A stretch of 64,000 nt of DNA, from NCBI GenBank assembly GCA_963924565.1, contig OZ004607.1, positions 12,834,001 to 12,898,000 on the forward strand, read 5' to 3'. The translations under genes were made by a program, and so were the position numbers. Below the pieces are notes generated by a model. That model had not been told where the DNA came from and did not search any database. It saw only the letters and a list, made by a program, of their open reading frames with translations. Each line of letters opens with the position of its first letter. The stretch's first letter is position 1. Of the stretch, positions 5,714-38,748 are shown piece after piece. The stretch is from Ascidiella aspersa. Its lineage: Eukaryota.

Positions 5714-8700
5714 TCACTGTTTAAAACATCTATGGAGAAAAATTAACCTAATGATTGAAATAATTCTTTTATGGAACAATACAAACAAGGAAATTGTGCT
5801 TAATGCAACAAAATACACAAAAAGTTCTTTCGGTATGTAACCATGGAATGCATACAGGCTCCATACTCTTTTTTGCATTGGATCTAACATTCTACTTTTG
5901 TATACTGGATCAAAGAAAAGTCGCAAAGCTGTTCCATAGAAGCATGCTGCCACTGCTGTCTGGTGAGTACTACAGCCATCTTTGAGGTGAAATACATAAA
6001 ACAATTTTTTGTTAAATTGTACAATAAAAATTTTACTTCAAATATAGTTTACTAGACGAAATAACCGGTGTTGCCCAGGTTAAATAGAATATTTTCCAGT
6101 TATTTTAACTGGGTAAAAGTTAACTACACCACAACATCACAATATTGTAGGTTTCCTGTTGATTATTCAAAGTATGTTTAAAAAAGGTAAAATTTCTATA
6201 AAACCCTAGCTCTAAACGCCAAATTACGCTGTGTCCAACGTCAGACAAACCCATAACCCATTGAAAAATATAAATTGCTTACTGTTGAAACTGCGACAAC
6301 AAACGCGATATTTTGCGAACTCTGCCTAAATTTGGAATTGTTAAACTTAATTCTTTACTTGGATTCGTTAACATGAATTATAACATGTGATGTGCTTTTT
6401 ATGTAATCCCAGTACCATACTTCTTCGAACATGAGTAAAATCCCGCTTGAAACTGAAAATTGGTTACCATTAAAACCGCTGCAAGGACTAAATAGCCAAC
6501 GGCAAGCATGGCAAACATCTTTTAGTTAAAAACATTAAAATTTATTTTTTATTCGTGCAATATACTTAATTTGATTTTTTATGTCGACGCAGGTAATTGC
6601 GCTTAAAAAAAAGCTTTTGCGCGGTTACATTTACGATTTGTCACGCGCAAGACTCCCCACACGACGGGGAGTCGCCGGTTATTTTGTTAGTCGACGACGA
6701 CGTTGCTCTGCCAGCAAACATATTACACACAAATAATCTCACAAATCTTCGTTTTTATATATATAAAGATTCCATTCTAGTACAACATTTTAAAAGGCCT
6801 TTATATGATTTTACCAAATTAAGGAAATTTATACAGGTTTGAAATTGAACTAAAATTTACACTCTTTAGTTGGACATATGTCTGCCGATAGTGTTAACAC
6901 TAACTAACCATTTTCACATACCAACAAGTCTCCTAAATTACCTGGATTTTGAACTATTTATTTATCCTTGTTATCAATTTACAGATTAATATTCATTACA
7001 GGCAGCCGGGACAAAGTTTTTTTTCTGTGACCGTTTGGGTTATAGAGCTGCCGTGAACACAATGAACACATAAAGAATGAATTTTGAATCATTTTCTGTG
7101 AGTGAACAGTATTTAAAAAAACATTTGCCCCTGTGATCAGGGCTGTATTTGAATTCCGTCTAGAACAGTGGTTCTCAACCTTTTTTCTTTTGTGGCCCAT
7201 TTTTGTTGCACAAAAATTATGTGGCCCAATAAATGTTTTTAAAAAAACAACTATGAAATAGGTTTAGAACAAAAAACAGCACAACAAGCTTCAAAAAAGA
7301 TTATTTCTTTAACCGTGCATTATTAAGATATTAGCTGCTGAACAATAAATTTACATTCCTTCTAAATTCCTTCCCAAGCCATTACTTCTGTAAAATTAAG
7401 TGTAGTGACACAAATACAACTTAATTCTTCATTAAATCTAGCTTGATAAAATTGGTCTGTGGCCCACTCAAAATATTCCCTTGGCCCACTAGTGAGCCAT
7501 GGCCACTGGTTGAGAACCGCTGGTCTAGAAAAAAAAAACAGTCCTGAGAACTAGTTTTTTTGGGTCCATAAATGCCTAATTGAAATATTAGTCTATATTC
7601 AAAGACCGAAATCAGCAGATTTATGAAGTCTATTTGTATTGTGACGTCAATTTAAAACGTCATTTTTTCATTTTTTTGCCTACTGTGGTCCATGCGAAGC
7701 AAAAAAGAATTTTAGGGTTTCGCAGTAAAAAAAGTTTAAGAACCCCTGATGTAACTAGAATAGAAAAAGGATATAGCAATCCACTGATACATATGTTTTA
7801 TACGTCACTCACATATATTTTACCTTTCTGATGTACAAAGTGTGTCGTAATAGGTTCTAAACATGGTACTGAGCCAGCACATAGGAGTTTATCGTCTTAC
7901 TACCAAGTCCACTTCAACCAAATAAACCTACTTTGCTGAGACCAAAATCCAGTTCTGCAGCCCTGCCTGTTACTGAATGCAGCAAGCAAACCATCTCTAC
8001 TTTTGTAATTAAATCCAACTTCAAAACTGAAACAGGATAAAATGGACAGCTATGTGGAGCAATTGTGCCAACGATGAGTTTCCATTTTGACAAAAAGTGT
8101 GTGTTATAAGCATGTTGCCATCTGTTTCATTTTAATTGGTTCCTACAAACGACTATTATTCAGCAACATTATGACATATCAACAGCGCAACATCTCTCCT
8201 AACAAATATTATTCAACAAACAGATGCTTAGCAAAATAAGTATTTTTGACTAATCTGGAGACTGCTTTGATCGTTTACCAGACAGACTATTGAATGCGTA
8301 GGACTTTTTGCCACATATGATGTGTTTGGTCAAGTCCTTACTATACTGTGCAATTGTGTATCATAAGCGATTAAACAAAATCAAACCTTGTCACCGTTTA
8401 ACAAATTTCGACTGCCAGAGCGTTTGAAAACAACAACAATATTTGCTTAAGGACACTTGGTCAAGTGGGTGTCAATTAGCTTTTGCCAGGAGCAAATTGC
8501 AAAAAATCTCAACTCTGCAACAATTACCTTCTAAAACAGAATCCATGTGCAATTTTCTGGATATCCACCGGCTTCTAGAAACACAAGTAAACAAATTGAG
8601 TTGACATTTTGTACATCTTTTTAAATTCCTATTTGTTGAATAAAATAGAGAGATACCTCGTCAATGAGAGCTGCCTAAAAAATTCCGGGTTAAAGTTATA

Positions 8701-10832
8701 TTCAGAATCATCTGCCATTAAACATCCCACTTTGTTATCCATCCACTGTAGCGCCTCTCGTAACCACTCTGGCCTTACTGCATCCATAATTCCAATGCTC
8801 CCACAAACAAATCCTTACAAAACACAATTTATATTTACATATTGAAAAGAAAAAATATATATATTTAACAAAATGTGACTTATAAGGGATCTGGGTAATA
8901 CCTTTAATTTTGTTATGTTAAAATTTATGTTAGTTTTTCCTTTATTTATATATGTATATTGCAGGTCAGTTTATTGTTGGTTTGGTTTAATATAGGCCAG
9001 TTCATTATCTTATCCATAATTTTAGGAATAATTCTACAGTTATACAACAGGCCTGCAACTACATATGAAAACCTTTTAATGTTGGCCACAATGTTATAGC
9101 TTTTTTAGGTTTTTCATTTTTAAATAAATGTTGACTTGCTAGTAATTGGTGTAATAAAATAATTGCTGTAATGAATGGAGAACAAAATTAAGGCCCATAG
9201 TTTAGTAATTCATATAATAGCTAAATAAAAGACCTTGTTCAAGAAATATATCTTGTGCAGTTTCATCCACACCATTTCTGGCTAAAGCCTCCATTTCTGT
9301 AACAACTCCAGCACACTTTTGCTCAATTAACTCGTCAAAGCCACCTTTGTACCCATCTTTTATTGCAGCCTTGTTCATTGCAGGTCGGCAACCCATCTGG
9401 TAATATAACAAAAAATAAATATATAAAGTTTCTGGGGGTCTAAGTGCACCTCAGACCACAAAAGTCATAATCTCAAACTTACTTTAACACCTAGTTGCAG
9501 CCATATCAGTTGATGAGTTGGGGTGTATAAGCTGTAGCCATTTTGTGTCATATTTTTCCAGCAAGTATCCAAAGGGCACCTATTGCTGCTTTCAGCAATA
9601 AGTAAAGATTTCATGCAGTAATCGCTGGATTCTTCACTGAACATTTCACCAGCTGTTTGAATTATATTAACCAACTATAATCTCCAAAATAAAGCATGCG
9701 AAAAAATGAATGTATACCAATTTTATTAAAGCAATAAACAGCAATGGTACTTTTTGTAAAAGCCACACAAGAGTAAACTATCGCAATGATAGTCAATCAT
9801 TTAATTAACAAATGTTGTGAGGCTTTGGGTACACTATGCACGGATCTGTAATGTAGCTTGATAATAAATTACAAAGCCAAAAAGGTCGAGTAGATCGACA
9901 GTATCTAAGATGCTGTCGATCTACTTGACCTTTTAGGCTTTGTTTTAGAAAAGTTTTTTGTTGTAGTGAGCAATTCAATTGTTAAGAAAACTGAATCAGG
10001 AAAATTTTAGATGAATTTAGAACAAAATACTCAACTCTTTACAGGAATCACTTCTATCCGTTTAACATCTGATATCTGTGGTGGAACTTCATAGGAGTTC
10101 CATGGACTATCAATCACAAAGTGGAGTTTGTCATAATATCTGGAGAAAAATAAAGAAACAAAATTCAGAAGTTCAAATCACTTGTATTTTACATACTCTT
10201 TGTCGGCTTTTATAAGAAATGGCACGGATTTGCTCATAGCTGCATTGGTCATGTTAAACAGCCTCATAAAACCTAATTGAATTTCAGGTTTTTTCCATAC
10301 ATTAGTTTGCATATTGTTTTTTGATATTCTCAAAGTTCTTTCCAGTTCACCTGTAAAATATAAAGAGAATGAACCTATGTCAATTTTTGTTGATGACTGC
10401 TAAACTGAGCATATTTGTTTTACTGTGAAATTTTACTGTACAATGTTATTAACCATCTTTAATTTAATATTAGAAGATTGACTTTTCGCACACATGTTCA
10501 GCTAACCTATAAAAAACTTTGGAGAACATGTTTTGGTAATGCTACATTTGTATAACTAAAGTGTACTTATAAAAAGAATTAATAAATAAAAAGGCAGAAA
10601 CTTGTATAGCACCTTGAAGAACTCTGATACCAAAACTAAAGTCTAAAGTTATATCCTGCATATGAGTTGAATAGTATAAAACAATGTTTTCCAGGGCCGC
10701 TAGTGTTTCCTCGGCTGTAACAAATGGCTGAACAAACTGTTTTCTTGTCGAAGTCGTTTTACTGAAGACAGTGGTAAATAAAGCGAGAAACAGTATAACA
10801 TATGCTTCTTTTAATGTTGACATTAAATTCAT
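5714..10832 (-). CDS. C16orf89: UPF0764/C16orf89-like protein, ~431 aa, 8 exons, signal peptide plus C-terminal hydrophobic segment
   Basis: Exons (minus): 10832-10613, 10350-10197, 10139-10043 (donor uncertain), 9674-9483, 9396-9234, 8813-8657, 8574-8528, 5979-5714. All introns are GT-AG and phase-compatible. Motifs FSEESSDYC, GYSLYTPTHQLIW, DIFLEQGFVCG, EWLREALQW...GC and DGCSTHQTAVA resemble the C16orf89 family as recalled. Confidence 0.85.
6052..6769 (-). mobile_element. Non-autonomous Helitron, 718 bp, in the last intron of the C16orf89-like gene
   Basis: On the minus strand it starts A|TCTTTATATATATAAAA and ends CTAG|T. An imperfect subterminal hairpin (aaccggtgttgcccaggtt, 6063-6081) is present. 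Inserted between A and T with no TSD; CpG-richer than the flanks. Confidence 0.8.
7166..7522. mobile_element. hAT (Charlie-like) MITE, 357 bp
   Basis: TIRs cagtggttctcaacc / ggttgagaaccgctg; perfect TSD gtctagaa. Confidence 0.92.
9871..9943. repeat. Near-perfect 73-bp palindrome in C16orf89 intron 3
   Basis: 36-bp arms acaaagccaaaaaggtcgagtagatcgacagtatct / agatgctgtcgatctacttgaccttttaggctttgt with 3 mismatches. Confidence 0.9.
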
Positions 10833-10841
10833 TTTTAGAAA

Positions 10842-10852
10842 CTGTAAAATTT
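10842..10852 (-). promoter_or_regulatory. Unpaired 3' splice acceptor (candidate SL trans-splice site) 9 nt upstream of the C16orf89 ATG
   Basis: aaattttacag|tttctaaaaATG, ~300 nt downstream of the EFCAB11 stop. Confidence 0.55.
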
Positions 10853-11140
10853 CAGTTGATTTAAACATAAAAGCAATGATATATTTATGAAAGTAGTACA
10901 CTTGACTATTAATTATGTGTTGGTCAACATTTTTGTTTTATATCTAGCAACAGAAAACCAAAAAATGAAAAGAACAATACAAAGTCAAACAATGAGCTGA
11001 AATAAAATATATAACTCTAAAAGCCTAATATTAAAAAACCAATGATATTGACCTCAAAAGTCAATAACTATTTCACAGCACTAATAATAGAACCACAGTG
11101 TTGCAAGCGTTTCAGTGGTGGAAACAAATAAAATGTATTT

Positions 11141-11620
11141 CTAAAACACACTGTTCATAATACAAAAAGATTGCAAGTCCAGCTTGTGCATCATAGCAGC
11201 TTCAAAGTCTCTATAACTAATCCTGCCCATTCCATATGGTGAGCACATTTCCTGAAAGCAGGATATTACAGTTGACTCAACAATGTGTGGCGCCACAAGC
11301 CTAAATACTTGCTTGATGTCGCCAAGAGTAAGAAATCCTTGGCACCGGATGTCAAGCATGTAAAACAAATGCCTTATTTCTTGATGAACATCTGTTGCTT
11401 CCAACTTGCTGGCCATTGTTTTCAAAAATGTTGGCAGTGACATGCCGGGGCCCTGCTGGGAGCTTTCATAATTCAATAGCTGGTCTATTTCATAGCTTGA
11501 TGGTTTGTAACCAAAAATGTACAGCATTGCAACTTTCAAGTCCTCTTTAGAAAGATAGCCTTTCAGCGTCTCATCAAAAATTCCAAATGTTTTTTTGAGA
11601 AATTCAACATTATCAGACAT
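11141..11620 (-). CDS. EFCAB11: EF-hand calcium-binding domain protein 11, 159 aa, intronless CDS
   Basis: KGYLSKEDLKVAMLYIFGYKPS, EIRHLF...GFLTLGDIKQVFRLVAP and ISYRDFE align with the recalled EFCAB11 sequence. Confidence 0.9.
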   Translation of the reverse strand: MSDNVEFLKKTFGIFDETLKGYLSKEDLKVAMLYIFGYKPSSYEIDQLLNYESSQQGPGMSLPTFLKTMASKLEATDVHQEIRHLFYMLDIRCQGFLTLGDIKQVFRLVAPHIVESTVISCFQEMCSPYGMGRISYRDFEAAMMHKLDLQSFCIMNSVF

Positions 11621-11651
11621 ATTTATGAATTTGTTTACAGATAGAACAAAC

Positions 11652-11684
11652 CTACAAAACTGGAAAGAAAAGTTTTTTTTTATT
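11652..11684 (-). promoter_or_regulatory. Juxtaposed SMC6 poly(A) signal and EFCAB11 splice acceptor(s)
   Basis: Minus strand AATAAA (11684-11679), A-run, then cttttctttccAG (11661-11660) and ttttgtAG (11653-11652), upstream of the ATG at 11620. Confidence 0.65.
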
Positions 11685-12001
11685 TAAATGGCATCACAAA
11701 GTGGCAATAGCAAGCGAAAGAGAGTAGAACAGCAAAAACTTAAAAATACATTACATAAATGGGTGGTAATTTGACAATAAAAAACTTGAACATGCTATAT
11801 GTTTTTTTTATTGTGCCAAGTGTATGAACTTTAATTTGTCAAAACAAATGATTTAGAAATAACACATTAAATTTTGGAAAATACTTGTACTGTGTACTGC
11901 AACACATTTATAACATGTCGCATAAAAGCATCGGTTTTGATAACAGCCCCAACACAAAACAATTAGGGTCAAACTGCATTTTTACAGAGAATACATATAT
12001 T

Positions 12002-15000
12002 TCAGAAAGGTAGGGTTGTTTGACCCCTTTCAGGGTCAGCCATCTTCCACACATGAATGGATTTTGATTTAGGCAATGCACTGATGTCATGCGGTGTCAA
12101 GAATATGAATTGCTTGTCAGTTCTTAACAAAGCAATATCCACCATCATGTCCATGGCAACTCTCCGGTTGGCCATGTCCATGAACACATCAAACTCATCA
12201 AGACATCGCAACGGGGAATGCATTGCCTCCCAAAGTGCCAGCACAAAGCACACTGTAGAAAATGATCTCTCGCCGCCTGACAGTGCCTTTAGGTCTTTTG
12301 TCAGGGACGCACTATTCTCATGTGGTTTAACACAAATAGAAAGGGTATTATTTTCATGATCAAAGGTTAAACTGCCCACAAAACCTCTCATTCGAAGCAG
12401 GACATCAAAGTCAAAAGCACAACGTGCTGATAGTAAACGTCGCAGTTGAGAAAAGGCAGCTTCTCTTTCCTCCAAATAGTTTTCAATTGCATCTGCAAGT
12501 TTTCTTGACATTTTGATTTGTCTCTTTATGTATTTAAACTTCTCCAACACTTCATTGTATTCCCTGACAATGACCTCATGATCACCATGTGTTGTTTCTT
12601 CTTGGCTGATACGACGATTGATTTGTTTTATTTCATTTTCTATGTTATTGGGGGTTCTGCGGGTGCTAATTTTTTCTGGACAAATCTGAGCTGCCTTTTT
12701 GGATTCTTCTTCAATCCGCTCTGTTTCGTGCTTTATACTAAGTTTTAATGCTTCGACACTTTCCAAATGCTTTTTCTTTCTTTCTGTGAAATGCTTTTTT
12801 TCTGCCTTAGCAGTTTCTAGGTCACTGGAGGCCTTGTTTATTTTTTCAGTCAAGTCCTCTGCACTGTCACAAATGTGTTTTACCGATCCAACACACTTGG
12901 CCAAAGCTTGTTGCTTCTCCTTTGTATGCTTGGCAAGGTTTTGGCTATCTTGTGTTTGTTGTTCGATAAGAACATCCAGTGAACCAAGCTGTTGTGTGTA
13001 GTGAGCAACTTCATCTTCCAGGTCCTTTACATCCAATGGTTGTGGATCTTCAATAGCTTCCAAAGACTTTATTTCAACAGAAATCTTTCTCAGTTTATCC
13101 TTGGTAGCAGCTTTTGATCTTTCATAGCGGAGTTGTTCTTGATCGCTGGACCTTAGTTCCTTTTCAGCCTTATTTAGATTTTGCTTTATATTAGTGAACT
13201 TAGATTGCAACATTTTCAATATTTCCTTGTTTTTTTTAATTTCATCATCAACATTAACTTTAAGAAATTTTGATACAGCATTTTTTTTGTTGGAGTAGAA
13301 TCTGTCAATTAATACCTCATCGCCATTTCCTGTAAATGCTTTAATGCAGTTGGGTGGTGGACGATTGCATTGAATTGTTCTTAGGGCATCTTGTACATCA
13401 GGAATAACAAGAATACATTCTATGCCAGCCATATCAATTAGAAGGTTAGCAATAACAGGATCATCAATTTTCAATAGGTTTAGAACTGAACTAAACTGTG
13501 GATGTTCAACTTGACCTTTTGAGACATCATAAACTCGGCTGCTGTACTCCATTGTGTATATTACAATTCTGGATCTCTCATAAATGGAGAATGTTGAGTT
13601 TCTCAAGGCTTCAAGTATTTTTTCATCTCCATGGTTATCCACAACAAAGCTGGTCATAAAACCCCTAATTGCACACTCAACTGGTACAACCAAGTTTGCA
13701 TCCTTAACGGTGACACAAGTTCCGATAGGACCTCGTGGTTTTTTTGAGAATCGTTTTTTGTTCCATGCATCTTCAATTTTTTGTACAAAATCTGGCATTT
13801 TGGAACCAAAAAGCTGAAGTCTATTTTTTCTACCCAAAGACAAACTGTTAATAGCGTGTTTAGCTCTTCTTTGCTCGTGTTGCAATTCTTGTTCTTCCCG
13901 TTTCTCATTGTGTATATTTTCCTTGAGGCGTTGAGAAGCCATTGCAAACTGCTCAACTTGGTGGGATAAGTTTTTTACCTGTGCTTCTGAAGATTTGTAT
14001 TGTTCCCGCAATTGTGCAAGAGATTCTTCCCTTTTTTGCTTTTCATCTTCAATGTCGGTTTTTGCAGAATTCTTTAGCTCCTCAATCCTTGTCTCCAGCT
14101 CTTTTCTATCTCTAATAGTTTCCCTCTTTTGTTGCTGTGTGCGACCAAGGACGTTTTGAGAGCGCTTCTCCTCCATTTTGGCTTCATCAAAAGCTTTTTT
14201 TGCTTCTTGTTTCTTAGGTTCCAACTGTTTTACTTGGCGTTGAAAGTCTTTGACTTTCTTTTGGAGATCATCTAAATCATGTTGAGCCGCCATTTCTTTT
14301 TCACGACATTTCTCCAAAGCAACATCATATTTTGGAGTTTTTAAGTTTTCCCTCTCCAGTTCTCGTTTAGTTGGCTTAAGAAAGTGTTGCAGCTGAATAA
14401 CCTGAGACCAAGCTAATTCTGATTTTAGTTCATTTATTTTAGTTTTCAAATCTTGAATTTGGGCTAAATCTTTGAATTGCTGTTCCTTCTCAAAAACCTC
14501 TTTTTCCAAATCAGGGATATTTTTCTGCTTTCGGTTTATGATTGTTTTAATTAGAACGCCATGGTCCCTTATGTACCGATAATCATGGCTCATTTGTTCA
14601 AGCTGCGTTGCCTTTAGGAAGAACTTGTATTTGTCAGATTCGTTTTTTGAATGTAAAAAATTTTTGCTCATTTCTTGGTTAAGGCAAGTAAGGGGATTAT
14701 CGACATGTAGGTTGATTTCATCCAATATCGTGAGAAGATCATCCTTTTTTGTTGATATGACTTTGTTGCTGTCATTTTTAATCTTGTAAGAAGACTGGCC
14801 ATCACAAGTAATTCGGCGTTCCACAATAATTTTGGAACCATAAATTTCTGGTCGTACAGGTTCTGCTCCATTGTTGCGTAGCACAATTTCGATGGTGGCT
14901 GAAGTGCTGCCTGTTTTGATTAAGGTCTTCAGGGAAGTTCCCCTACTGGTATTACTAGTTTTTCCACCCAATCCAACAATGAGTGCAGTTAAAACTGCAC

Positions 15001-15196
15001 TTTTTCCGCTGCCATTGTGCCCAACTACAAAATTTACGCTGCTGGTAAAACGCATTGTCAGTCTACCGTGGCACATAAAGTTTTTTAAAGAAATGCTTTC
15101 AATAATACCGAAACCATTGGTTTCATTTTCCTTATTGGACCTTTTTGGGGTGGATGTTCCAGAAAGCGGGGTTGATGCTTTTCGTTTGGATGCCAT
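12002..15196 (-). CDS. SMC6: Structural maintenance of chromosomes protein 6, 1064 aa, intronless CDS
   Basis: Walker A GHNGSGKS, Q-loop LNQEMSK, coiled coils, hinge PRGPIG, signature LSGGERS, and the SMC6-type Walker B/D-loop CLDEFDVFMD. Confidence 0.97.
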   Translation of the reverse strand: MASKRKASTPLSGTSTPKRSNKENETNGFGIIESISLKNFMCHGRLTMRFTSSVNFVVGHNGSGKSAVLTALIVGLGGKTSNTSRGTSLKTLIKTGSTSATIEIVLRNNGAEPVRPEIYGSKIIVERRITCDGQSSYKIKNDSNKVISTKKDDLLTILDEINLHVDNPLTCLNQEMSKNFLHSKNESDKYKFFLKATQLEQMSHDYRYIRDHGVLIKTIINRKQKNIPDLEKEVFEKEQQFKDLAQIQDLKTKINELKSELAWSQVIQLQHFLKPTKRELERENLKTPKYDVALEKCREKEMAAQHDLDDLQKKVKDFQRQVKQLEPKKQEAKKAFDEAKMEEKRSQNVLGRTQQQKRETIRDRKELETRIEELKNSAKTDIEDEKQKREESLAQLREQYKSSEAQVKNLSHQVEQFAMASQRLKENIHNEKREEQELQHEQRRAKHAINSLSLGRKNRLQLFGSKMPDFVQKIEDAWNKKRFSKKPRGPIGTCVTVKDANLVVPVECAIRGFMTSFVVDNHGDEKILEALRNSTFSIYERSRIVIYTMEYSSRVYDVSKGQVEHPQFSSVLNLLKIDDPVIANLLIDMAGIECILVIPDVQDALRTIQCNRPPPNCIKAFTGNGDEVLIDRFYSNKKNAVSKFLKVNVDDEIKKNKEILKMLQSKFTNIKQNLNKAEKELRSSDQEQLRYERSKAATKDKLRKISVEIKSLEAIEDPQPLDVKDLEDEVAHYTQQLGSLDVLIEQQTQDSQNLAKHTKEKQQALAKCVGSVKHICDSAEDLTEKINKASSDLETAKAEKKHFTERKKKHLESVEALKLSIKHETERIEEESKKAAQICPEKISTRRTPNNIENEIKQINRRISQEETTHGDHEVIVREYNEVLEKFKYIKRQIKMSRKLADAIENYLEEREAAFSQLRRLLSARCAFDFDVLLRMRGFVGSLTFDHENNTLSICVKPHENSASLTKDLKALSGGERSFSTVCFVLALWEAMHSPLRCLDEFDVFMDMANRRVAMDMMVDIALLRTDKQFIFLTPHDISALPKSKSIHVWKMADPERGQTTLPF

Positions 15197-16175
15197 TGTC
15201 AGTTCCCGATATTACAGGTGGTTAGCATTCAAGTCATTTATAAACCTAAATTATTTTCAAGAACATAAACAATTATTATCAATTAATAAAAATTAACTTT
15301 AAACACAAAGTTTGTCACCAACCAATTTTATCACAAACTAATGTAGAAAGTAAGGCATGTGCATGTATTCTTTTAACAGATATTTAAATGTTGAATTTGC
15401 ACCCTAATTCTTCAAAATTTGAAACTTTTGATATTACACTGGGGAGAGGGTTTTGTAGTCTAAAATTGTGCGGCTGCAATAACATTATTTTTAATGTTTT
15501 CAGAAAATGAAGTCCTTAACTGAAAACTGTTAGTGCCAAAAATTTTGTGTGTTTAATTTTATTGGCAGGGCACTTGCAAGATCTTCCATACTTTGCAGAC
15601 TGGGTGTCAGGGGCAGCATTGAAAAAACTGTATGACCAGTCTGCATTCTGCGACAGATGTATATTTGACATATTTTAAGAGAAATTTGTGTGCATACCTA
15701 TTGTCAGAAAAATCAACACTTAGCTTGTTTCAGTATATTTTTATATTGCAAAACTAAAACATCAATCAGAAATAAAAAAGTACTTAGTAACAATCTGCAA
15801 TCCGTTAAGCATGCATGCCGAAATAGCTATCAGAGTAAGTCAACGTGACCATAATCTGAAATAATAAACAAAAAGCTAGCTGCTGCCTGTCGCGTTTATT
15901 GCTTGCCCAGGTTAAAAAGTTTGACATGCGCGGGGATTTATCTCTTTTTGACACACATCTGTAGTGACAAACTCAGACGCAGCTATGAAATTAGTTCAGT
16001 CACAAAAACTATGGGGGCAGTAAACACGAAAAGCTTTTTTTTTGTCTTTTTAAAACCATCAGTAGTAATTTACTTAGAGCTGCGCAAACTTTAGAAGTAT
16101 CGTTATTACAGTGCAGGCGAAACCTTGAGAGTGTTCATATTACAGCCGCGCATTTTCAAGCTGCTTAAATATCTC

Positions 16176-16371
16176 GGTGCTGGTCTACAATCCTACTACA
16201 ACGATAATTATTTGGGTTTGCGTAGGTAAGGCAATATTATTAAATAATAAATATAATAGTACTTGGTCCACCCCCACGTAAACCACTAACCGACATCCTA
16301 ACCGAAATATTGTGCGTTGCTTTAGTTATTGTTTCAACGCTGTGCCTGTGGTACGGTTCTATACCAGAGCC
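16176..16371. mobile_element. GGCGCT-terminus TIR element (family copy 1)
   Basis: ggtgctggtctacaatcctactaca ... tgtggtacggttctataccagagcc; internal cctaaccgaaatattgtgcgttgc is shared with ~51729-51752. Confidence 0.6.
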
Positions 16372-17048
16372 ACGCAATCAAACCAGCATACGTATGGTGT
16401 AGATGTTGCTGCATTTAAGCAGTCGACGGGGGGTGTACGTATTATGCATGTGCTTTTTCCAAATAGCGCCGAAAATTATCTTTAACCAGGAACGCTAGTC
16501 GTACTTGGCGCTAAAAGCTCAAATACAAACATCACAGGAACCACAGACAGTGTGTTGCGGTCAGAGATGTTAAATAGAAACGTTTGCGAGAATCTGCTGG
16601 CTGGCGGCTGACAAAAGTAATAAAAAAGTGTAATCTCGAAACTTTTCTTTATTTTTACGTGTGAGCTTTCCTTTTTTTTTAAAGTCAAATTTATATTAAA
16701 AGGTCGTAAAATATAACAATGTTTCAATGAATAATTTTGCCTAATTTTTAACTGATAAATATTACAAATAAGCAAAATCAAATAAGTTCGGAAATAAAAA
16801 TTTCTGAACTTCGTTTAAACTGGGTAATTTTTTATTTAGTTAAACATTGCTTAAAAAGTTTGGCACCAGAGGGCACAACCCATCCATCCATGCATATCTA
16901 AACAGGGTGCTTCAAAACTTAAATGACAGACTATGCTCTAAAAACTGACATACTTTTCGCTGTTAAAACTGATAGGAAATCATATATATCGCTGCATTCT
17001 CTGCCAAAATGATTGACTTAAATTTAAAAAGTAAGTGCGCTTTAGTAG

Positions 17049-20499: not shown

Positions 20500-23400
20500 A
20501 CGCTTGTCCTCTGTATGATCGCCTGGATACTTCAGTTACAGTGTTACAATCAAATCCGCTTTGTTTGAGCGTTGATTCCTGATCACGTGTGTTGTGTATC
20601 CGATTTAAATACTGTGCCCACTCGCTTAGTACAAATCGATGCTGCTGGTTAGGGGGCTGGCAGCATTGTCGGCAGAGAAAAGTGTACATGGATAGAGTGC
20701 GGCGCCACAGACATTTCTTCCAAGACGTTTTATTGCGAAAGGACGCCACAGTCCTGTCTATCGTGCTTGTCTTGCGCACACTGCTTCTTTTCGCGGTGTT
20801 TCCACATTAACGTAGCGCGAACCGCATGAGTGGGCTTCAGGCTGTCTGCTAACTGGCGGCGTTGCTTCAGGCTACGCGCGGTGGTTATTGCAGGAGCGCC
20901 ATCAAAACACATGCAGAAATTCGAATTTTGCGGTTGCTAGGTGAGGCGCCGCATTTCTCGCTTGCAACCTTTCCACATTTCTGAGGCGACAAAATTTAGA
21001 TCTTTTGGAAAGAAATGTTTAAATGCAAGTCGATTGCGAAAACCGAAAATTTCAGCCAAATACCCTTGTACCTCGGTTTTCTCCCGCAAAACAACGCGTT
21101 TTCCTTTTTAAAGAGGGGTGTCGAATTACGGATTACGGTCTTTTCACGCCGTGATTGTTGAAATTATCTTCGATTTCCAAGCAGAGGGAGAGACACGCGC
21201 AAAACCCGCTAAGGGAAAAGAAACGAAACTAGCGAGAATGGAATGGCCAACAAAGCGCGACTGTCTCCAACGCCGCTGAGCAATGCCGTCGAAAAAAGGG
21301 CAAGGAGCTCGGTGGCGCGGCGCTCGGGAGGGGAGATGCCTCATTGAAACCAGTTACGCATTCGCAAGCAACTGTCCAAGGCCGGTGTGTTCCCATTCGG
21401 TCGGGTTTGCCCTCAGCGAGAGAAAGGCCGGCGCGAGGGTTGACTCCGCTCTTCTAGCATTGATTGTTTTTGCTACCGCTTTGGGGAGCAAGTCTTAGCT
21501 TGATTCCTCGCACGCGCGCGCGCTCTCTCTCTCTTTCCCAGGCGCTTGTGTGTGCCTTTCTGGGGCGCGCGAGCCACCGGCGGCGGCGACGACGGCGGGC
21601 AAGAATGGTTGTATATGTGCGCGTATGGATGCGTGCGGCGACTTGCTCCTGCGATGCGACTCGAACTTTTTTGACTTGCCCGTTTCTTTTTCCCAGGCGC
21701 GACCGCGCTCGATTCCTGCTGTCGTCTACCTCTTTATGTCGACTTCATTCTTTTGATTACAATTATGCCCTCCCGCCCGCCGCCAGGTTTACTTACTATG
21801 CACGCATCGTCGGTTCGCTCTCGCGGGCCGCGCGTTATTAGCAAAAGATTTTTTTCGCCTTTTTGAATAGCTGCCGTCCGTTTGCTGTCCGGTCACGCCT
21901 CAGCGACGTCGGCGACACGGCCTAGGTTTCTCGCTATGTAAGTTTTGTGTCGCTTTAACACGCGCAACCTGTTTTGTCTTTGCCGATAGTCGTCTTTTAA
22001 AAGGTGTCCCCGAGAGGCGTGTGTTGTCGTAAGCAGACATGAAACATCAGATCGTAATGATTTGGAACGCCTCGTTGTTAGCGTTGTGCTCAGGGTGTGT
22101 TAGCGAATCTTGATTTGTGTTTGGGCAGTTTGCTATCGCTGCGATTCAAAGCGGCAAAAATCGAGGCGCGCGTGCCGCCAGAGCTTTGGACTGCTTCGCA
22201 ATAATGGGTGCCGATTGATGCCTGGAGAGGCCGGCGTACACATATCGAACCTGATTGACGCCGTCAATCAAAGGAGACGAGCAGTTGGCGCGTCTAGTGC
22301 TTGCTAGCAGGGCAATAGCAGTCGCTTCACGGCAAGCTTAATCAGCAGATCGGTAAAGATAAATGTTTCCCCCGAGATGTGTCAGATTCGAGTTGGTGTC
22401 TTTCCATAACCGCGTGTTTAATTAGCACGGTTGCAAACTGGAATGTTGTCGGATCAAGTAATAAGCGATCTTAATTGTAGTTGTGTATCTGAGATATATA
22501 AGAACACGTGGTACACTCAAATGTTGATTTGAAAACAATTTTATTAATTTGTTCTCCAAAGTGGTTTATAACAATTCAGACTTTCGTTTTACCACATAGT
22601 TGTAAAAGTAATAGTTAGAAAGGTATTCTGTGACATTACTCCACATTCGCAACAGAATACACAAAACCAAAGAAAATGTCGATGTTTGTCGTTTTTTAAA
22701 CGCTTGAAAGTAATGAGGAATTAAAAATGAGCGCGGAAGCACAACTCACTCTGTGACGTCGACGGCGTGGTCGCCACTGGACCTAATGTTTTATGCAACA
22801 CAAATGTCTTTGCTTTCTTTACATTGGTATTGATTTTTCTTGTGATATAATTCTCCCGGGATGCGACGGGCAGGTTCTTGGTGACGCGCTACAGAAAACT
22901 CGCAGTTATTCTTAATATGGCAGCGTTTGTTAAGTCGTAAAAGTGTTTAACTGGCGTATTTTGCTTTATTGGGATGTCGTTTTCGCGCTGTTTTGTTGCC
23001 GCGCAAAATTTCGGAAGTGTATTGGCGACAGTTGAAATGTCTAGCCGTGAAAAGTTTCTGTCGACTTTAAACCGGTGGCCCGTCCCCCCTGAGCAGCAAA
23101 TTATTTACCTTTTGAATGGGTGCAGCCAAGGAAAGGGGCGGTCGACAAACAGCGATCGAACAGGGCGCATGATAACCGTTAGTTTTCTACCTCGTGGTGT
23201 TTAAAAGTGGACAAAGTGTTTGCAGAGTTTGTAACGGGGAGCCAGGCCGGGTCTTACTTTTCTTCGTCGTTAGGTTGCTTGCCCCCAGCCCATAGCCCAC
23301 CATATCACGTTTGCCCTGCGCAAAGCAAATACCGCGCGCTTTGTCACTCGCTGCAGTACTGTTTGTTTTTCTCGTTATAATAATTATGTACTTTCCATGT

Positions 23401-25200
23401 TGGAGGAATGTCAGGCAATATAATAGATATTTGCCTTGTCCAAGGAATCCCGAGACAGTCAATTATTAACCGGCGCTGCGAAAGATAGGCGCGCAATGTT
23501 CTGACGTGCCAAAAACGTTTTACGCCCGGTTTGGAAACTGCCATAAAACAGAAGCACGTCGATGCCGCCAAGGTAAACGATGTTTAAATTAATAGCCCAA
23601 TATTTCGCCGAGGTGCGATAATGGGACAGGCCCGGGTTGCAGCATCAAGTAGCTGGTAAGAGACTTATCCGATTTGTGTCGTCGGATGTGATTAGCCTCA
23701 ATATTCAATGATTGTCTGGCTTCTTCATTCCCTTCTCGACTCGCTTACGGAAAGTGATTGGTGATTAGCACACTTTGATGTTGTTTGAGTATTTTGCAGC
23801 TCGTCAAACTATTGGCACCAATCTAATTTCTGCTAGTACACTTTTAAATACACAGGAATTGTTTATTGATCCAAGGGTGCAATAAATAACGATGTGCAAT
23901 GTAACTTACATTTTTTTTATAAATGTTTATTTCCATGTTACTATTTTTTATTATAGACAAGTGACAAGACTATTTAGTATACCTTGAACGAATATTGTGA
24001 TTTTATAACGTGCTACAAAGTTTAGACACGCCCGAATGACATTTTTATGATTTTTTGAACAAATAATAAAAAAGCGCTTCTTACTTATTCAGGTTTAGAA
24101 AAACGGTCACCCATAACTGAACCAAACGACTCAATGATATATTTACTCAGTGATTGATTTTTAAAATTTATCCAAACAACAAATGTGTTAATAGGTTAAT
24201 TTCCAAGTTTAGTCGTTGCGCAATTTAAAACTCCCTTCCTCGTCACAAGACGTCACAGTTAGAGGCGCGACGTTACTCGATGAAGAAAAGCTGTTTTCGA
24301 TATGCGACGTGATGCTAGTGTGACGCACGCCCTCCGTCCCTCCAATTCCCAAGTTAGCCTTTCTAAATTTGGAAATCCACATCGGTCACCTTCTGTTGTG
24401 TTTCCCTCACGACAGGGATGTGTGTTTTTTGTTCACTGAGGCGCTGCCGCTAAGTCAGTGCGAAGCTTAGGGTCCGATTCGATTGCACTGTTTTCAGGCA
24501 AGAGACGGCATCGTGCCAAGGTGATGTAACTTTTCGGGAAAAAGTTGCGAAAAAAATGCTGTCGCCGTGTGCTGCTCGGTTGATTGCCGATGTACTTGCT
24601 CTTCGCGAACGTGTTACCCGCCGTTTTCGGTCGGTCGCCGAGAGTTGTACCTTGCGCGTTTTTCCCTCTGCCGTCTTTTGTCTTTGCTATTGTCATCCAG
24701 CGACTCTCCCCCCTCTCTCTCCATGCTCTCGCCCTCCCGTCGTCTGCACACACAGCAGCGCACAGGTCGCTCTCGCCTTACTTGCCTTTCTCGCGGCGGC
24801 AAATCGCGCTCATTCGCGTGTGTGTGTGCGATCGAGTGCGCGCGCCAGCATAGAGTCGCCGCCGCCGCTCGCTCGCTCGCTCGCTGGTTGAAAACGCTTC
24901 GCTGTCCATTGTGTTAAGCGAATTGGACACTGTTAGAGCTGTTGTTTTGTTCTGGCGCGAGGGACACCACGACTTACGTTCGGTCTTGGCGAATATCTGA
25001 TCGCTGCCAAGCGATTCGTCGCGTGTTTCGTTCGGCCAAGAGGCGTGTATAAAGCAGAGGTAGTGGCCGTGGTACAACGGCGCGAGAAACAAGGACTTCT
25101 GTCCAATATTGGCTTTAAAAAATTAGTTTCCATGCGAAAGACATGCCGCATTAAGTGTTGTTTACTGTACCAGCCTAGCCGCTTTGAGGATTAATTTATT
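20500..25200 (+). promoter_or_regulatory. CpG-rich promoter / 5' regulatory domain of BCL9 with two GC peaks (~21.2-21.95 kb and ~24.25-25.15 kb)
   Basis: Abrupt rise in GC and CpG, with (CG)n, (CT)n and (CGCT)n runs. A strong donor tat|gtaagt at 21938 suggests a non-coding first exon; candidate 5'UTR exon at 25258-25391. Confidence 0.6.
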
Positions 25201-26008
25201 GTTGGCATAGGTAATTTCATTAGGTCTAGAAGACAAGTTTTAAAATTTATTTTGCAGGTTTTTGCTGATCATGGTAGATTAAATAAGAAATGACCCATTG
25301 TGTTATGTTGAACTATTTAGCATTTACCATGGATGAACAAAACTTCCATTCAGTTGCATGGTCGTGGCAAACATCACAGGCCTTGTAAAAAGTAAATATT
25401 TTATCTTATGTTTGTCTACGTTTTTAAATTAAATTTAACTTAATTTTATATTGTGTATTTATTCACACTGAGAGTATTGCTGTATATAGAAATTAAAAAT
25501 TTGTCCATTATAAACAATATATCATACTTTTCTTTTCTGGCATTTTTCAGTAAACATTTTCTTTTGTTGCCTATAGGGATTGTTTAACGGTTTCTAGCAT
25601 GTAAAACTAACACATCTTGGCTTGTTGTACATACAACCATTAGATTTAAACTCCCTAATTGTCAGTGGTTTAATAAATGCTTAATCCAAATTGTTAGTTG
25701 TACTATAATAGCATGTAAAGCTGAGGTAACAAACGTAAGGGCAAGGTAGTCCTCGAAAACTTTTTATAAGATGTATACACCATGAAAATATTCCTACAAT
25801 ATTTTTGATTATTTATTTTTCAAAAGCACAGTTTAAATTATACCTGTGCCTAAATTTTCCATGACACAAATCAAATATTTATTATGACCCACTATTTATA
25901 TCATGAACCTAATTCACAAAATGGAAAAAAAACATTCTCCACAGACTTTCTGTTTTATTTATATGGCAGTTGTTTTCTTTCACAGGTGGAGGGACAAAGT
26001 AATCTGCT

Positions 26009-29000
26009 ATGGATACAAACCACTTGAAATCTGTGTCTTCTGTAATTGGAAAGGCTAACACTGGATCTGGGTCGAAGTTAAAAGGTGGTAACTCTTTAGG
26101 ATCTTCTCCAGGGAACACCAACTTTAACAATTGCACAAAAAGTACCCATTCTATGATTAACAACAATGGCAGAAGAAGCGCATCTCCATTTTATAGTGCA
26201 GATTCGAAATCAGACGAGTTACTGTCAAAGAAAGGTTAGAAATTACTGAACTATGTTGAAATACTAATAGTGGAATATTAGTGTTATTTTTATATGGTAG
26301 AGTTTTAGTGACTAATGGCCATACAATGACTCAGTGGATGTTAGAAGTGACTGATGACTTTGTCTTAATAGAAATTAACCATTTTACTACAAGTTGCTGA
26401 AATGTAATATTTTCACTTAAAATAAACTTTTAAATGGACTTATTTTTATATAATAACATATTTATTTTTGTGTTCAAGAGAGAGCGACCGATATCACTTT
26501 TTTGGACCGTTTTTTTTTTTTTTTATATAAACTTGAATTAATTAAAAATAAAATCCGAATAATGTTTTAGTTTATATATCTTTATTACCTATTAAAGTAT
26601 TATTGAGCAAATTAACTTGGCGCGATGCTACACCCAAATTTTTTTAATCAAAAGATGGGCAAGTTGTTTGTTGTACAGTAAAAGTATATCATATTTTCGT
26701 ACTAAAATATCAGCAAAAGTAGTGGCCTACATTTACCGATGTCTATCTCTAGGGTTCAGTTTATTTCCTACCACAACCCTGATCAACAGGATCAAATCTG
26801 TAAAAGTCATTTTCTTCTTTATTGCCATTAAGAAATGTTTGTTTATAATACCCTGCATGGTTGTCTAACAATATTAATCCAACCGCCACAGGATGGAATG
26901 CAATTGTGTTTATTTGTGCCAAAGGTCAATCGGCAAGCATTCCAAGTATTCACGCAAGTGGCTTTCCTGCTCTATCATCTTCCCCACCTATCAGCACGGC
27001 ACCATGTATTCCACCCCTGAGCAACGCTGTCCTTTCAAAGCGCGATGGTAGTAAACCCAATACAAATGTACCAAGTGAAACAAGGTACAGAGCATATTTT
27101 GCTCCAAAAATTATTTTGGTAGAGGTTCAATAGTTTTTTAATGTAGCAAACATTAATTTCTAGAAATTAATGAAACCACCGATTTACATGATAAAATTGT
27201 TTGTTGTTCAAACCTGACTTGAAGCTATAATATATTAAATATTGTCATATTTACATTTGATTTGCTGTACTTATATAGTGTAACTTTGTTATAGTTGCTT
27301 CAAAATTGCTTTCTATATTTTTTCTACTTTTACTGCAAATTTAAGTAAATCAGGATGGAACAAGAGGCTCTCGTTGAATTTAATGTTTTTATACAGTTTA
27401 AATATAAAACTGATTGTTGAATAAATAATTTTATTATAAATGAAAAAATAATTTGCTAAAAATGTCTCAAAACTAATAAGAAAGTTTCCCTTTCCATTAA
27501 ATACATTGACATGCAAAAATTACATTTATTGACAAATCTAGCTTTTTTTTTGCATTTTTAACAGCTATCTGTTTTATTACTCTGTTAAATTATGTTTCAA
27601 CAAATAGAAAAATTGATTGTTTTACAACTATGTATTTCTTTTAGGCACACAAACAGCCCTTATTTGCGATTGCCCAGTCCAAATGAAATGAAAGGAAACA
27701 CCCCTTCCTCAAGGAAGGAAATTTTGGCTAATCGTTCTGAGAAGTCTTTACCAGCTAACCATGTTGCATCAGGCGATAGAAACCAAAGCCTAAGAAATCC
27801 TAACAAAAGAAATACCTTTATGGCGCGACGGCACAACTCAGTTGAATGTCCTGGCGGCTTCAGCCCAACAAATTCTTTCAAAAACATGAAGGGTCCAGAA
27901 AAATCCAACCTCCATCAAAGTCCAAGAGGGGATTTTTTTAGTGATTCAAGTGGGAGAAACCAGGCGGGTTATCAATCGCCATCACTGTCTTACCCATCAC
28001 CATCCTCAAGTGAAAACGCACTTACCCCAGGTGCGATCAGCAGAGGTAAAAACAAAACAGGCCTAGCTCAAGACATTGGGCCTGCCACTCCTGCCTCTAG
28101 CATTGCACCATCCCATATAAGTAATCACCTGAGTCGAACATCATCAAGCAATAGCATTTCCGACTTGAGCCGCTGTAGTGAAGTTGCTGACGATGTTACA
28201 CATACTGATGGAACAACATCACTGCCAGGGGACAGTCAAAGCGCACGGACTACAACTTCACCTGGAAGGAGCGTCTGTCAGATGAACATAGAAAGCACAA
28301 TGCATTTTACGCAATTTGATGACGATCGAGCCATTGTTGATGCCCTTGGTACGCTAACAGATGTCACAGAGCAAAGTCATATCGACAAGACAGAAAATCC
28401 TACTGCCATAAATGCTGGGGAAAGTATTCCAACAGAGAAATTGGAGCTTAACCTAGATGGAGACTTCCAGTTTCCCGATGATGACAATGGACCCGCAGAC
28501 ATTGGCCAAAAGGCTCTTAATCTATCTGCAGAAGACGTCAGACAGACCTTGAACTCTGTTTCGGCAGAATCAGACTTGCCAGACCTGGGCACCGATGCAA
28601 ACGTGTTCGAGGACAATTCAGCAATGCTGATGAGCAACAGCACGGATTTTAATGCATCAAGTGAGAGTTTTTCTACAGGGGATGCTAGCAGAGTAATATC
28701 TCCATCAACAGCTGTTTCTGTTGCAGTCTCTACCTCACCTACCACCAGTATTGTAACCACTGCTGTAAACTCTGTTCCCACAACACTACCATCCACTTCT
28801 TCCACCCTGGTAAGGACTGTTGGGTTTTCCAAGCTTTCTACTATGTAGTAAAGTAAAACGAATACAAGTTTTCAAAAATCTGTTTCCAATTATCTGTTAA
28901 AAAATAAGAATTCATGAAGTTTTATAATACTGGATTTTGAATGCAAGTTCATTCTAAAACTAGTTATTACACCAGATTAACTATAATGATGTTATATGTT

Positions 29001-32000
29001 GTGGACTACCAAAATGTACAGTCTTAACTAAACTAAACTAAAATATTTTTTTAACTAAATAAGATATTAAGTTTTGGAAAATTTATAGATTTTGTGCGAG
29101 GTTCAAAGTTCTGCTATAGTTATTTAATAGAACAACAAAGCATATTGGTTAAATATTTTCTCAACATTTAGGATATATATATATATATCCATAACTTGGT
29201 AAACAGGATGCAGACACTGACAAAATGTCTCCTGTAGGCTCCTAACGCTGGATCATTTGGAAGCGATGTATTTCCATCTGGTAGCAGCGGGCAATCTTTT
29301 CAGTCAACCCAAAACTCCTCGACCATGTCTTCGACATCGGTGTCATTTTCTGGAGCCGGTGCACCTGGATCTGGGATGAGATCACATCTTCAAGACATCC
29401 TTGGTGTTACAGACACTGATAGGTAAAAGATAGCTTCTAAATTTTCAACTTTTGGATTGAATCGCAACAAACATATATATTAAAAACACATGGCCACTGA
29501 TTCTTAACTTTTTATACTATGTGGCCACCTTAAAAAGTCTCTCAACCCTTGTGTCCCCAGCTAATAAAAATGCCTAGCATTGTAACGAATCCAGAATATT
29601 AAATCCTAATATTTTTGAAATAATTGTTTGACATTTATTTTTTGTGGGATTAAAAGCAATTCTTCGTTTCTAATTAACATATATGTTTTGTGTACTGGTA
29701 TCAAACATATGTATAATGTAATCGAAAATTTAAATTACAAATTATTAACATTATAAACAACTGCCACATTGTTGCCAAACCTATTTTTTCCCATATAGTG
29801 AGTGCAATGCTAAACAATGTTATTTTTTAGTTCTACTTCATTATAAATTTGATATGTTAATTGGCAGTCAAATAATGTGCTGCAAAGAATAGAAAGCTAT
29901 ACCACTGCCAGTAATGCGTTACTATTACAATTACGTGAGGTATTATCTTGCTGAATATTGGCCTAAAGTTAACCTTGAGTAACACTGTAGCGCACTTTGT
30001 GCAATTTTACGATGGAAAGTTTCTTTTGTAACTTAACGCCCTTTAAAAAAATAAAAAAATTTATGCACCTGGCATTTCAAATTAGTTACTCGCCCAATAG
30101 CATTTGATAGATATTTAATAATTTGGCAAGGGGTATTGACAAGTATTTGGTCACCCTATAAAACACTAACCCCACAAAAAGTGCTAACTATATGGCTACA
30201 CAAAGTGGCACAGTAATTATTTCACCAGCACAACGATAGGCAGCATTAATCCAAACTTGCCACTTGCGTATGTAAAATTAAGCGTAAACTTTCCATAATA
30301 ATTTTCAGATATATAAACAGTTAGAATTGGATTCCATTTCTATTTGAAACTGGCAAAGTTTGAAAATAATGACACTTGGATAGTTGGGTTTTGCAACACT
30401 ACAACCTAGCTAGAGAGTTATGCCCGTGGCCCCCCAATGACCGCTCATTATTTTGAGTAAATATTCAAATTTAAAAACAAGGCATAGAATGTGTTTTTTA
30501 CAGTATATATACAAAACTATAACATTTCTGTATTGGCTAAATTGTTTATAATACAAAGCCAATCATGATTGCTATTTGTTTTTATTTATATTATAGTTAA
30601 ATTGTATCTTCTCTTTTATGAAGGTTAAAGAAGATGGGGCAGCCTGTAGATTCTTCCCAATATGTTGCGACAACTACCTCATTCAACCCCAACATCCCAC
30701 AACCTGGCCAAGTGATGCCCAACAGCTCCACAGGCCCAGTCCAAAACTTACCCTCCTCCCAATTCAATCGACTTACCTCTCCCACAGGCAACAACAGCAA
30801 CATGTACCAACGAAGTCCCGTATTTCATCCAAGGAATCACCCATACGGTGGCCAACCCCACCCTATGATGGGCTATGATCACCCAGGCATGCACCCGGGA
30901 GCGTTTATGGATGGGCCCAGAACAAATATGCCATATGACCCAAGAATGTCCCCACATCACCACCCCGGTCCTGGCAATGTTCCATTTGGACAGGGTCCAC
31001 CATGGCAGGGGCCGTCACCTGGTAGTATGATGCCCCCACCTGAGGGAAACAAAAGCCCCAGAGGCCAAATGGGCCCATCGTACGCTCATAGACCAATGAA
31101 CCCCATGACAGGTCTTCAGAGCACTGTAAATTCCATTCCAGAAGCCTTTCCAACTAGCCACGGAATAGGCTCCATGACAAAAAATAACAATAACAACATG
31201 GGCCCACCCAACTCATACCAGGGAATGCCACAAATGTCCAATAATGACTTTCCTGTATCTTTGTCGCCAATGTCAAGAACTATGTTACCTCCGCAGTCAC
31301 CTTCAATCCAATCCGACAAAATGCGCTCTGTAAGTGCAGATAGCTCTGCTAGCAATACTACTACTTCATTAAAAAGAAGCAATAAAAGGGAAAGAGGACA
31401 ATCTGTTGATTCTAAAGACGGTGAAAAACGTAAGACAAATTTTATTTCTAATTGAAAAAAATTATATGTGTTTTTTAACTATTAATAGTCTGACTCTGTG
31501 AAAAACCTTTGATGATAAATTAATAAATGAAAGCTAGCTTTTAAATATCCAAATCCTCTTTAGTTCACATATCTAACTTATCCTTTTCTTCACTAATTAA
31601 ACTTAAAGAAGTTCCATGACTTATGTGTACCATTTTTACAGAATCTGGTCCCAAGTCGAAACGTAGGAAAAGCAGGTCCAAGGATGACAGTAAGTGGCAC
31701 TTTTTTAGAATGGTGAAGAAATTTCAATTATCCACGCCCACAAAATTATTGGCTTGTAAAAATAACCAAAAGCCCTGCGCAAGCCATGTAATTGCTAGCC
31801 TTAGGGTACCAGTGATTGGATTTATCATACTGCCCAACTTCTTGTCTGTGACTAAAATACCAGTGATACCAATGCCTTGTATAAATATAGGTGTCTGCTG
31901 TGAAAATAAATCAGTGTGGATTGCAACTAAATTAACATATTCAACATTTTTGCCTATATTCAGTTAATCACAAAATTCAACACAGGTAAAAAGACATCTA

Positions 32001-38000: not shown

Positions 38001-38748
38001 CAGCGGGTCCGAGGCAAATGGGTCCTCACCCTGGCGACGGTTACATGGGTGATTATCACAGACCTCCATCACATCCATCCATTTGTATGTCGCCTTCGAT
38101 GCAGCCTTCCCAACAAGGCATGATGGGGCCTAATCCCGAAATGGACATGCGGAATTACATGCCGCACAATAGCGCGATGGCCGGTCCGCCGGGCAATATG
38201 CAAATGATGCCCGGCGGAATACGAAGGATTCCCGAATTCGATCTGACTCATATAATTCCAAGGGAAAAACCCTCGGAAACTTTGTCGTATTTCCCGCCGA
38301 ATGACCGGGGTGGCCAGGAAACAAGCCAGGCTGACCCTGGTGCAAGTAATCAGCCGCAACCTGGCAGGAGTCCAACTGCGATGCAACCTCCAATGCCAAG
38401 GTTGGTCTAAGTTCGATTTTTAAAGCATAATTAACAATACCCCTTTCCTACTTAAAGTATCAGACTTGGCATTGTTTAATCACATCTAAAAATATCAAAA
38501 TACTTTATTGCAGGTATCCTAATAGCAGTGGAATGAGTCATAGACCAGCGACGCCCGGCAGCGGCGCGTATCCCGGAAACCCCTCCATGCGCCCCATGGG
38601 TGTTCCGGGAAACTTCGGGCCGTCGAATCCCCCGAACTACCCCCCGGAGTCCTACATGTACCACATGTCTGGCAGGCCGCCCATGATGAACAGTGGCCCT
38701 GGTCCTGGTATGCATTCGGGCTACTCAGGCGGCCGGACGTTGATGTGA
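26009..38748 (+). CDS. BCL9: BCL9/Legless beta-catenin co-activator, ~1880 aa, 15 coding exons
   Basis: Exons 26009-26234, 26925(or 26892)-27084, 27645-28809, 29238-29422, 30624-31429(or 31420), 31642-31689, 31986-32047, 32393-32797, 33924-34038, 34174-34316, 35347-36367, 36549-36868, 37129-37263, 37778-38400, 38514-38748 join in frame. Motifs: HD1 VYIFNSEVANAAASMISQGKAPTMVSYH, HD2 LTEEQMRHRQDSLNKIKTIGNIF, HD3 EWLRLVQAYNEHKK, and C-terminal blocks MSSFPLSMPSPLYQDAIK and IPEFDLTHIIPREKPSETLSYFP. Confidence 0.92.
26477..26751. mobile_element. Decayed hAT-like MITE in a BCL9 intron
   Basis: Left end agagagcgaccgatatc, also seen as tagagagcgaccattatc at ~33271; right end accgatgtctatctcta. Confidence 0.4.
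29745..30285 (+). repeat. Old interspersed repeat, homologous to ~59915-60370
   Basis: Shared collinear blocks ttataaacaactg, ttgttgcc-aaac, gttaacctYgagtaac, atggctac and caaacttgccacttgcgtatgta. Confidence 0.7.

Follow-up and report, generated by a model that had tools for sequence, protein, structure and literature searches.

The operons of the ascidian Ciona intestinalis/robusta consist of same-strand genes with transcripts <100 nt apart, have no intercistronic DNA, and were defined by the addition of a spliced leader (SL) to the downstream genes and by polyadenylation at the G of the acceptor (Satou 2006, PMC1488885). No AATAAA lies nearby at 16 of 18 junctions, and a competition between 3′-end formation and trans-splicing has been proposed (PMC1488885). 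Genome-wide, 1,310 operons were reported; 185 comprise three genes, and in 60% the first gene has a single exon. Such operons take in about a fifth of Ciona genes, and the cause of the frequent single-exon 5′-most genes was left open (Satou 2008, PMC2760879). The SL1-type operons of C. elegans have little or no intercistronic DNA and, like the first junction of the locus described here, a canonical AATAAA just above the acceptor, but in this nematode, which uses SL2 as well, they are a minor class, whereas a single SL serves all here (PMC1488885). Oikopleura dioica, likewise a tunicate, resolves its operons with a single SL, but this leader is different from the Ciona-type SL found here and the intercistronic spacers are 23–30 nt long (PMC1488885).

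A window of 64,000 nt from Ascidiella aspersa (contig OZ004607.1, positions 12,834,001–12,898,000) holds SMC6, EFCAB11 and C16orf89 (Table 1), and these three genes probably form one ordinary tricistronic operon of the Ciona type. As in Ciona, where the three-gene form is common, the genes are unrelated and lie on the same strand, the genome has the identical 16-nt SL, the 5′-most gene has a single exon, and the second junction is without AATAAA. Unlike in Ciona, where SL joining and polyadenylation at the acceptor G are established, trans-splicing at this locus is deduced from sequence and coverage, as SL-bearing reads were not seen at the low depth covered; further, the first junction has an AATAAA 19 nt before the AG and the second may leave a gap of ~100–150 nt. 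The original prediction of an operon gained partial support from the SL arrays, the sense RNA across both gaps, the CpG domain and the single-exon first gene, but SL joining and a spanning molecule were not observed.

Table 1. Features of the SMC6–EFCAB11–C16orf89 locus (positions within the window)
Feature	Position	Strand	Description
Putative unmethylated promoter region	15751–16700	minus	CpG o/e 0.99–1.19, TpG/CpA 1.1
Possible 5′-UTR intron or outron of SMC6	15697–15246	minus	452 nt; donor-like GT 15697, AG 15247–15246; read from sequence alone
Two short uORFs	15237–15229, 15228–15199	minus	between AG 15246 and the SMC6 start
SMC6 CDS	15196–12002	minus	one exon, 1064 aa, single copy
SMC6 3′ UTR	12001–11661	minus	AATAAA at 11812–11807 and 11684–11679
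Tandem acceptors, candidate SL site of EFCAB11	11661–11652	minus	G11660, G11652
EFCAB11 (EF-hand ORF) CDS	11620–11141	minus	one exon, 159 aa, single copy
EFCAB11 3′ UTR / C16orf89 leader	11140–10833	minus	candidate acceptors G10997, G10944, G10842
C16orf89 (DUF4735) gene	10832–5714	minus	ATG 10832, stop 5714; 8 exons, 426 aa
C16orf89 exons 1–4	10832–10613, 10350–10197, 10139–10036, 9652–9483	minus	predicted model, partly RNA-backed
C16orf89 exons 5–8	9396–9234, 8813–8657, 8574–8528, 5979–5714	minus	borders predicted

The head-to-tail order on the minus strand, with 381 nt (SMC6/EFCAB11) and 308 nt (EFCAB11/C16orf89) from stop to start, was borne out by the open reading frames, Pfam and ascidian homologues. 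In a profile search the SMC6 frame matched Pfam SMC_N/AAA_23, and its best named relatives were those of Phallusia (67% identity), Clavelina (60%), Ciona (57%) and Styela (48%); the EFCAB11 frame had 57% identity to an EFCAB11-like protein of Phallusia and 49% to that of Styela. The third gene is the sole match to PF15882 in the genome, and while the searches give the Pfam family alone, we take this DUF4735 gene to be C16orf89. Its model has an open frame, GT-AG ends at 7 of 7 introns and a hydrophobic stretch at the C-terminus of the protein, and RNA supports intron 1 (a joint of 4 reads) and intron 3 (a loose end of 4 reads). Across the 308.6-Mb genome there was one full match for each of the three genes, the second-best being a distant EF-hand for the EFCAB11 query and, for SMC6, a short SMC head exon that is probably SMC5. 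Two consecutive same-strand gaps of <400 nt have a chance of P ~0.0003–0.001 under rough random placement, for an assumed 15–20 thousand genes and an assumed genic fraction. Both upstream genes are without introns, a point absent from the original prediction. An Rfam search of the window returned no matches.

Elsewhere in the window, a ceramide kinase gene (45048–47309, minus strand) has only two coding exons, the first AT-rich and the last abruptly GC- and CpG-rich, and F420-oxidoreductase-like exons at 52906–54250 (plus strand) are presumably NOXRED1-like. At 20500–38400 (plus strand), a 4.7-kb CpG-rich region (o/e 1.32) precedes a multi-exon gene rich in proline and methionine; this gene is divergent from the candidate operon, has no Pfam match and, we presume, resembles BCL9. 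Left of the window are a weak KRIT1/FRMD8 FERM exon (plus strand) and a D-glutamate cyclase gene (minus strand).

The Ciona 16-nt SL followed by GT (≤2 mismatches; leader sequence from PMC7986045) had 884 matches in the genome, compared to 55 for the reversed control. Many copies were exact and lay in tandem arrays of 584-bp units on contig C3, with GTAA directly after the SL in 13 of the 14 copies printed. Given this excess of matches, the tandem arrays and the GT donor, the organism has Ciona-type SL RNA genes. The arrays, at 5.22–5.45 Mb of the contig, are broken at intervals of about 8 kb. Behind the SL donor, no fewer than three distinct sequences occur, corresponding to several SL RNA intron types with one common exon. 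Genome-wide, the 16-nt SL exon also occurs in 173 exact copies that have no G behind them (control, 1), and among the 20 of these inspected (L098–L117) the SL heads several repeat families. Behind the SL at one such locus (L108) come a leader of 81 nt and an ORF of 287 aa that contains a Baculo_FP_2nd domain; we take this ORF to resemble a LINE ORF1. These insertions suggest that trans-spliced retroelement RNAs were re-inserted together with their leader. No paper on such re-insertion was found in the ascidian literature by title, and the dispersed insertions are possibly of greater interest than the operon finding.

In the proposed operon, transcription would start from the predicted promoter at about 15.75–16.7 kb and RNA polymerase II would read through, with the 16-nt SL joined to the EFCAB11 mRNA at AG 11660 (or 11652) and to the C16orf89 mRNA at one of the AGs of the second gap. 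The gaps would be UTRs rather than spacer. With the 3′ end of each upstream mRNA placed at the acceptor or close to it, every transcript would be subject to competition between 3′-end formation and trans-splicing. The T-rich AGs named in the original prediction are all present, but T-rich AGs alone are near chance: in the flanking non-coding DNA, 20–29% of positions have a T-rich YAG within 60 nt, and the chance that a piece of background as long as the gap contains a site equal to the gap's best is P = 0.46 (gap 1) and P = 0.21 (gap 2). By an ad hoc score ranked against background, 11660 fell at the 97th percentile and 10842 at the 94th; the AGs at 15246 and 10842 fail a simple T-rich YAG filter. 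G11660 is preceded by 77 AG-free nt, and no upstream ATG lies between it and the EFCAB11 start. Within gap 2, G10944 scored best, G10842 next and G10997 fourth, and the C16orf89 ATG would come first, and cleanly, only with 10842, since 10944 or 10997 would place a 5-codon uORF (10930–10913) ahead of it. The distal AATAAA of gap 1 (Table 1) is the one that ends 19 nt before G11660, while gap 2 has neither AATAAA nor ATTAAA, and a limited pattern found no consensus donor in either gap. The two AATAAA, the competing acceptors 10997 and 10944, and the two upstream ATGs after AG 15246 had all been missed originally. AG 15246 is a weak site, with two uORFs after it and a donor-like sequence (AG/GTATG at 15697) 452 nt upstream, so it may be a cis acceptor, or be unused with SMC6 starting elsewhere.

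In Ciona, broadly expressed genes carry methylation in their bodies, and promoters are unmethylated (PMC3827831); Ciona promoters have high CpG scores (PMC3333190). Against the use of CpG as a promoter mark, one TSS-seq study saw no CpG difference among Ciona promoter classes (PMC4691747). Between 15750 and 8400, the unique stretches of this locus had a CpG o/e of 0.19–0.51 and a TpG/CpA of 1.3–1.5; CpG o/e was 0.19–0.29 across EFCAB11 and gap 2, and TpG/CpA was in excess, at about 1.5, in each gap. The depletion is continuous through both gaps, and the nearest upstream promoter-like DNA lies at 15.75–16.7 kb, inside which a dispersed repeat begins at about 16229 (repeat depth in DNA runs). 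The earlier description of the gaps as AT-rich and CpG-poor held (GC, 0.29 and 0.26; 4 CpG compared to 13.1 expected), but CpG poverty in the gaps is weak evidence by itself, because 29% of 345-nt windows reach an o/e ≤0.39. Overall, the CpG profile fits one transcription unit with a promoter above 15750.

The RNA evidence came from about 6% of one stranded run (X5) carrying the same species label; its two alignments used the same portion and are not independent, and one was swamped by repeats. A total of 375 reads were placed on 9930–16200, and minus-strand RNA alone occurred in every 210-nt bin from 9930 to 15179, with no empty bin in either gap. There was no coverage at 15180–15809, including the 5′ end of SMC6. 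Upstream of SMC6, a few plus-strand reads at 15810–16200 (depth 1.2) may represent divergent transcription from the putative promoter. Depth was 1–20 in SMC6, 5.6–8.7 in gap 1, 25–27 in EFCAB11, 2.4 in the bin 10770–10979 and about 9 in exon 1 of C16orf89. In this one run, the change in depth at each of the two junctions thus points to three distinct mature mRNAs. A depth of 10 at 11869 and 3 at 11758 shows that part of the SMC6 RNA continues beyond the first AATAAA (11812) toward the second (11684), extending to within ~100 nt of the EFCAB11 acceptor. Across the 11661–11652 zone depth rises from ~3 to 27, and the bin mean fits an EFCAB11 mRNA start near 11660. No SL tail was present in the two of four loose ends inspected, at low depth, which does not amount to negative evidence. 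Also speaking against an operon, the depth of EFCAB11 is 2–3 times that of the adjoining genes, as a promoter of its own would equally produce, and an AATAAA near junction 1 is atypical of Ciona operons.

At the second junction, depth was 16 at 11039, 13 at 10996, 4 at 10967 and 3 at 10959, then ~2 on average over 10781–10958 before reaching 7 at 10780 (7–8 below). Because the EFCAB11 drop (10996–10960) lies 120–150 nt above 10842, this junction may not be abutting. Such a profile would fit a locus with one operonic junction, at which SMC6 and EFCAB11 make up a dicistron while C16orf89 is served by a separate promoter or outron that lies within EFCAB11 or the EFCAB11 3′ UTR, but the trough sits in 25% GC sequence where coverage drops anyway. 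Ciona outrons average ~440 nt, which makes a hidden internal TSS possible (PMC4691747), and 1,079 of the 1,310 Ciona operons are dicistronic (PMC2760879); however, gap 2 is without a poly(A) signal and the low CpG o/e over EFCAB11 and gap 2 is unlike promoter DNA. A single operonic junction is judged unlikely, and its variant with SMC6 apart from an EFCAB11–C16orf89 pair less likely. Two other signals in this gap carry little weight. Five molecules end at 10996, one base beyond AG 10998–10997, and this pile was downgraded as a poly(A) or acceptor site as it is one base off, the 4 reads shown have adapter rather than poly(A) after their ends, and the SMC6 ORF contains a comparable pile at 13478 (6 of 7 ends); random priming or duplicates can explain it. 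A joint between 10925 and 10819 (2 reads, one extra base) has no GT-AG ends and short microhomology, and may be an RT jump, one molecule or a deletion allele; the joined form would bring ATG 10930 in frame with C16orf89.

Three independent genes, with compact promoters overlapping the upstream 3′ UTRs and with the downstream genes trans-spliced from short outrons or not, are a decidedly improbable alternative. The depth steps and differing levels would be natural for separate promoters, but the methylation signature is unbroken and such spacing twice running is improbable in a 309-Mb genome. Likewise, the two AATAAA could end SMC6 normally, yet its RNA comes within ~100 nt of the EFCAB11 acceptor, and the lack of linkage in Styela and of SL reads has to be set against Ciona, where 12 of 12 close same-strand downstream genes in an unbiased sample were trans-spliced (PMC1488885). 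It is very improbable that the AGs are cis acceptors of 5′-UTR introns, for which the donor-like site at 15697 is plausible in the case of SMC6 only, or that the unit yields a stable read-through mRNA, as no joint of ≥3 reads into 11660, 11652 or 10842 was found within 9930–16200 (EFCAB11 depth ~27), the gaps are without consensus donors, and the sharp depth steps speak against one mature mRNA.

The tricistronic operon remains the preferred reading, and the cluster looks lineage-restricted, because the genes are unlinked in Styela, the neighbours are missing from the 1.8 kb next to SMC6 on a tunicate-like contig (L013) and no common contig was found elsewhere. Synteny, offered with the original prediction as a check, was not conserved in Styela or on this contig. 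In Styela, SMC6 is on a contig of 32,746,820 bp and EFCAB11 on one of 31,344,463 bp, which places them apart assuming one assembly and true orthology, and the two Styela EFCAB11 isoforms have only the first ~109 residues in common, suggesting introns. Among the screened contigs, only L013 (61%) and L014 (53%) were close enough to be tunicate-like; L014 is almost without flank, and L013 has an intronless SMC6 whose following 1.8 kb contains neither EFCAB11 nor C16orf89. Neither gene was near SMC6 in the 80 best of 469 metagenome SMC6 loci, for a C16orf89 query model with two wrong borders, and a one-exon query gave no C16orf89 homologues. From Ciona and Clavelina the only EFCAB11 relative found was a C. 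savignyi UniRef entry, and no contig was common to the SMC6 and EFCAB11 relatives compared, a weak comparison. A literature search for the three-gene combination found no paper, and SMC6, EFCAB11 and C16orf89 were not found in the examined supplements of PMC7986045 (KH IDs), PMC6952182, PMC10810493 and PMC11555436.

A young, lineage-specific origin may tentatively be considered, in which already intronless copies of SMC6 and EFCAB11 landed before a resident, intron-rich C16orf89, the parent copies were lost, and competition between the older poly(A) signals and trans-splicing now sets the ratio of the three mRNAs. In favour are the intronless SMC6 of L013 with no EFCAB11 behind it, the lack of linkage in Styela, the single copy of each gene here, and the 173 dispersed SL-headed insertions, which suggest re-insertion of trans-spliced RNAs. 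No retrocopy of either junction was found in the genome. Retroduplication has reportedly yielded intronless genes in Ciona.

The functional coupling of a genome-maintenance ATPase, an EF-hand protein and a surface or secreted protein, as first proposed, found no support, the genes being unlinked in Styela and their mRNA depths differing ~3-fold; the grouping likely reflects promoter sharing among housekeeping genes. Beyond annotation, the operon adds little, as one among more than a thousand expected. If the locus is an operon, the regulation of SMC6 would also set that of its two neighbours, which matters for gene models. The locus provides one data point on why 5′-most genes in operons often have a single exon and, having AATAAA at one junction but not at the other, could be used to test the competition between 3′-end formation and trans-splicing.
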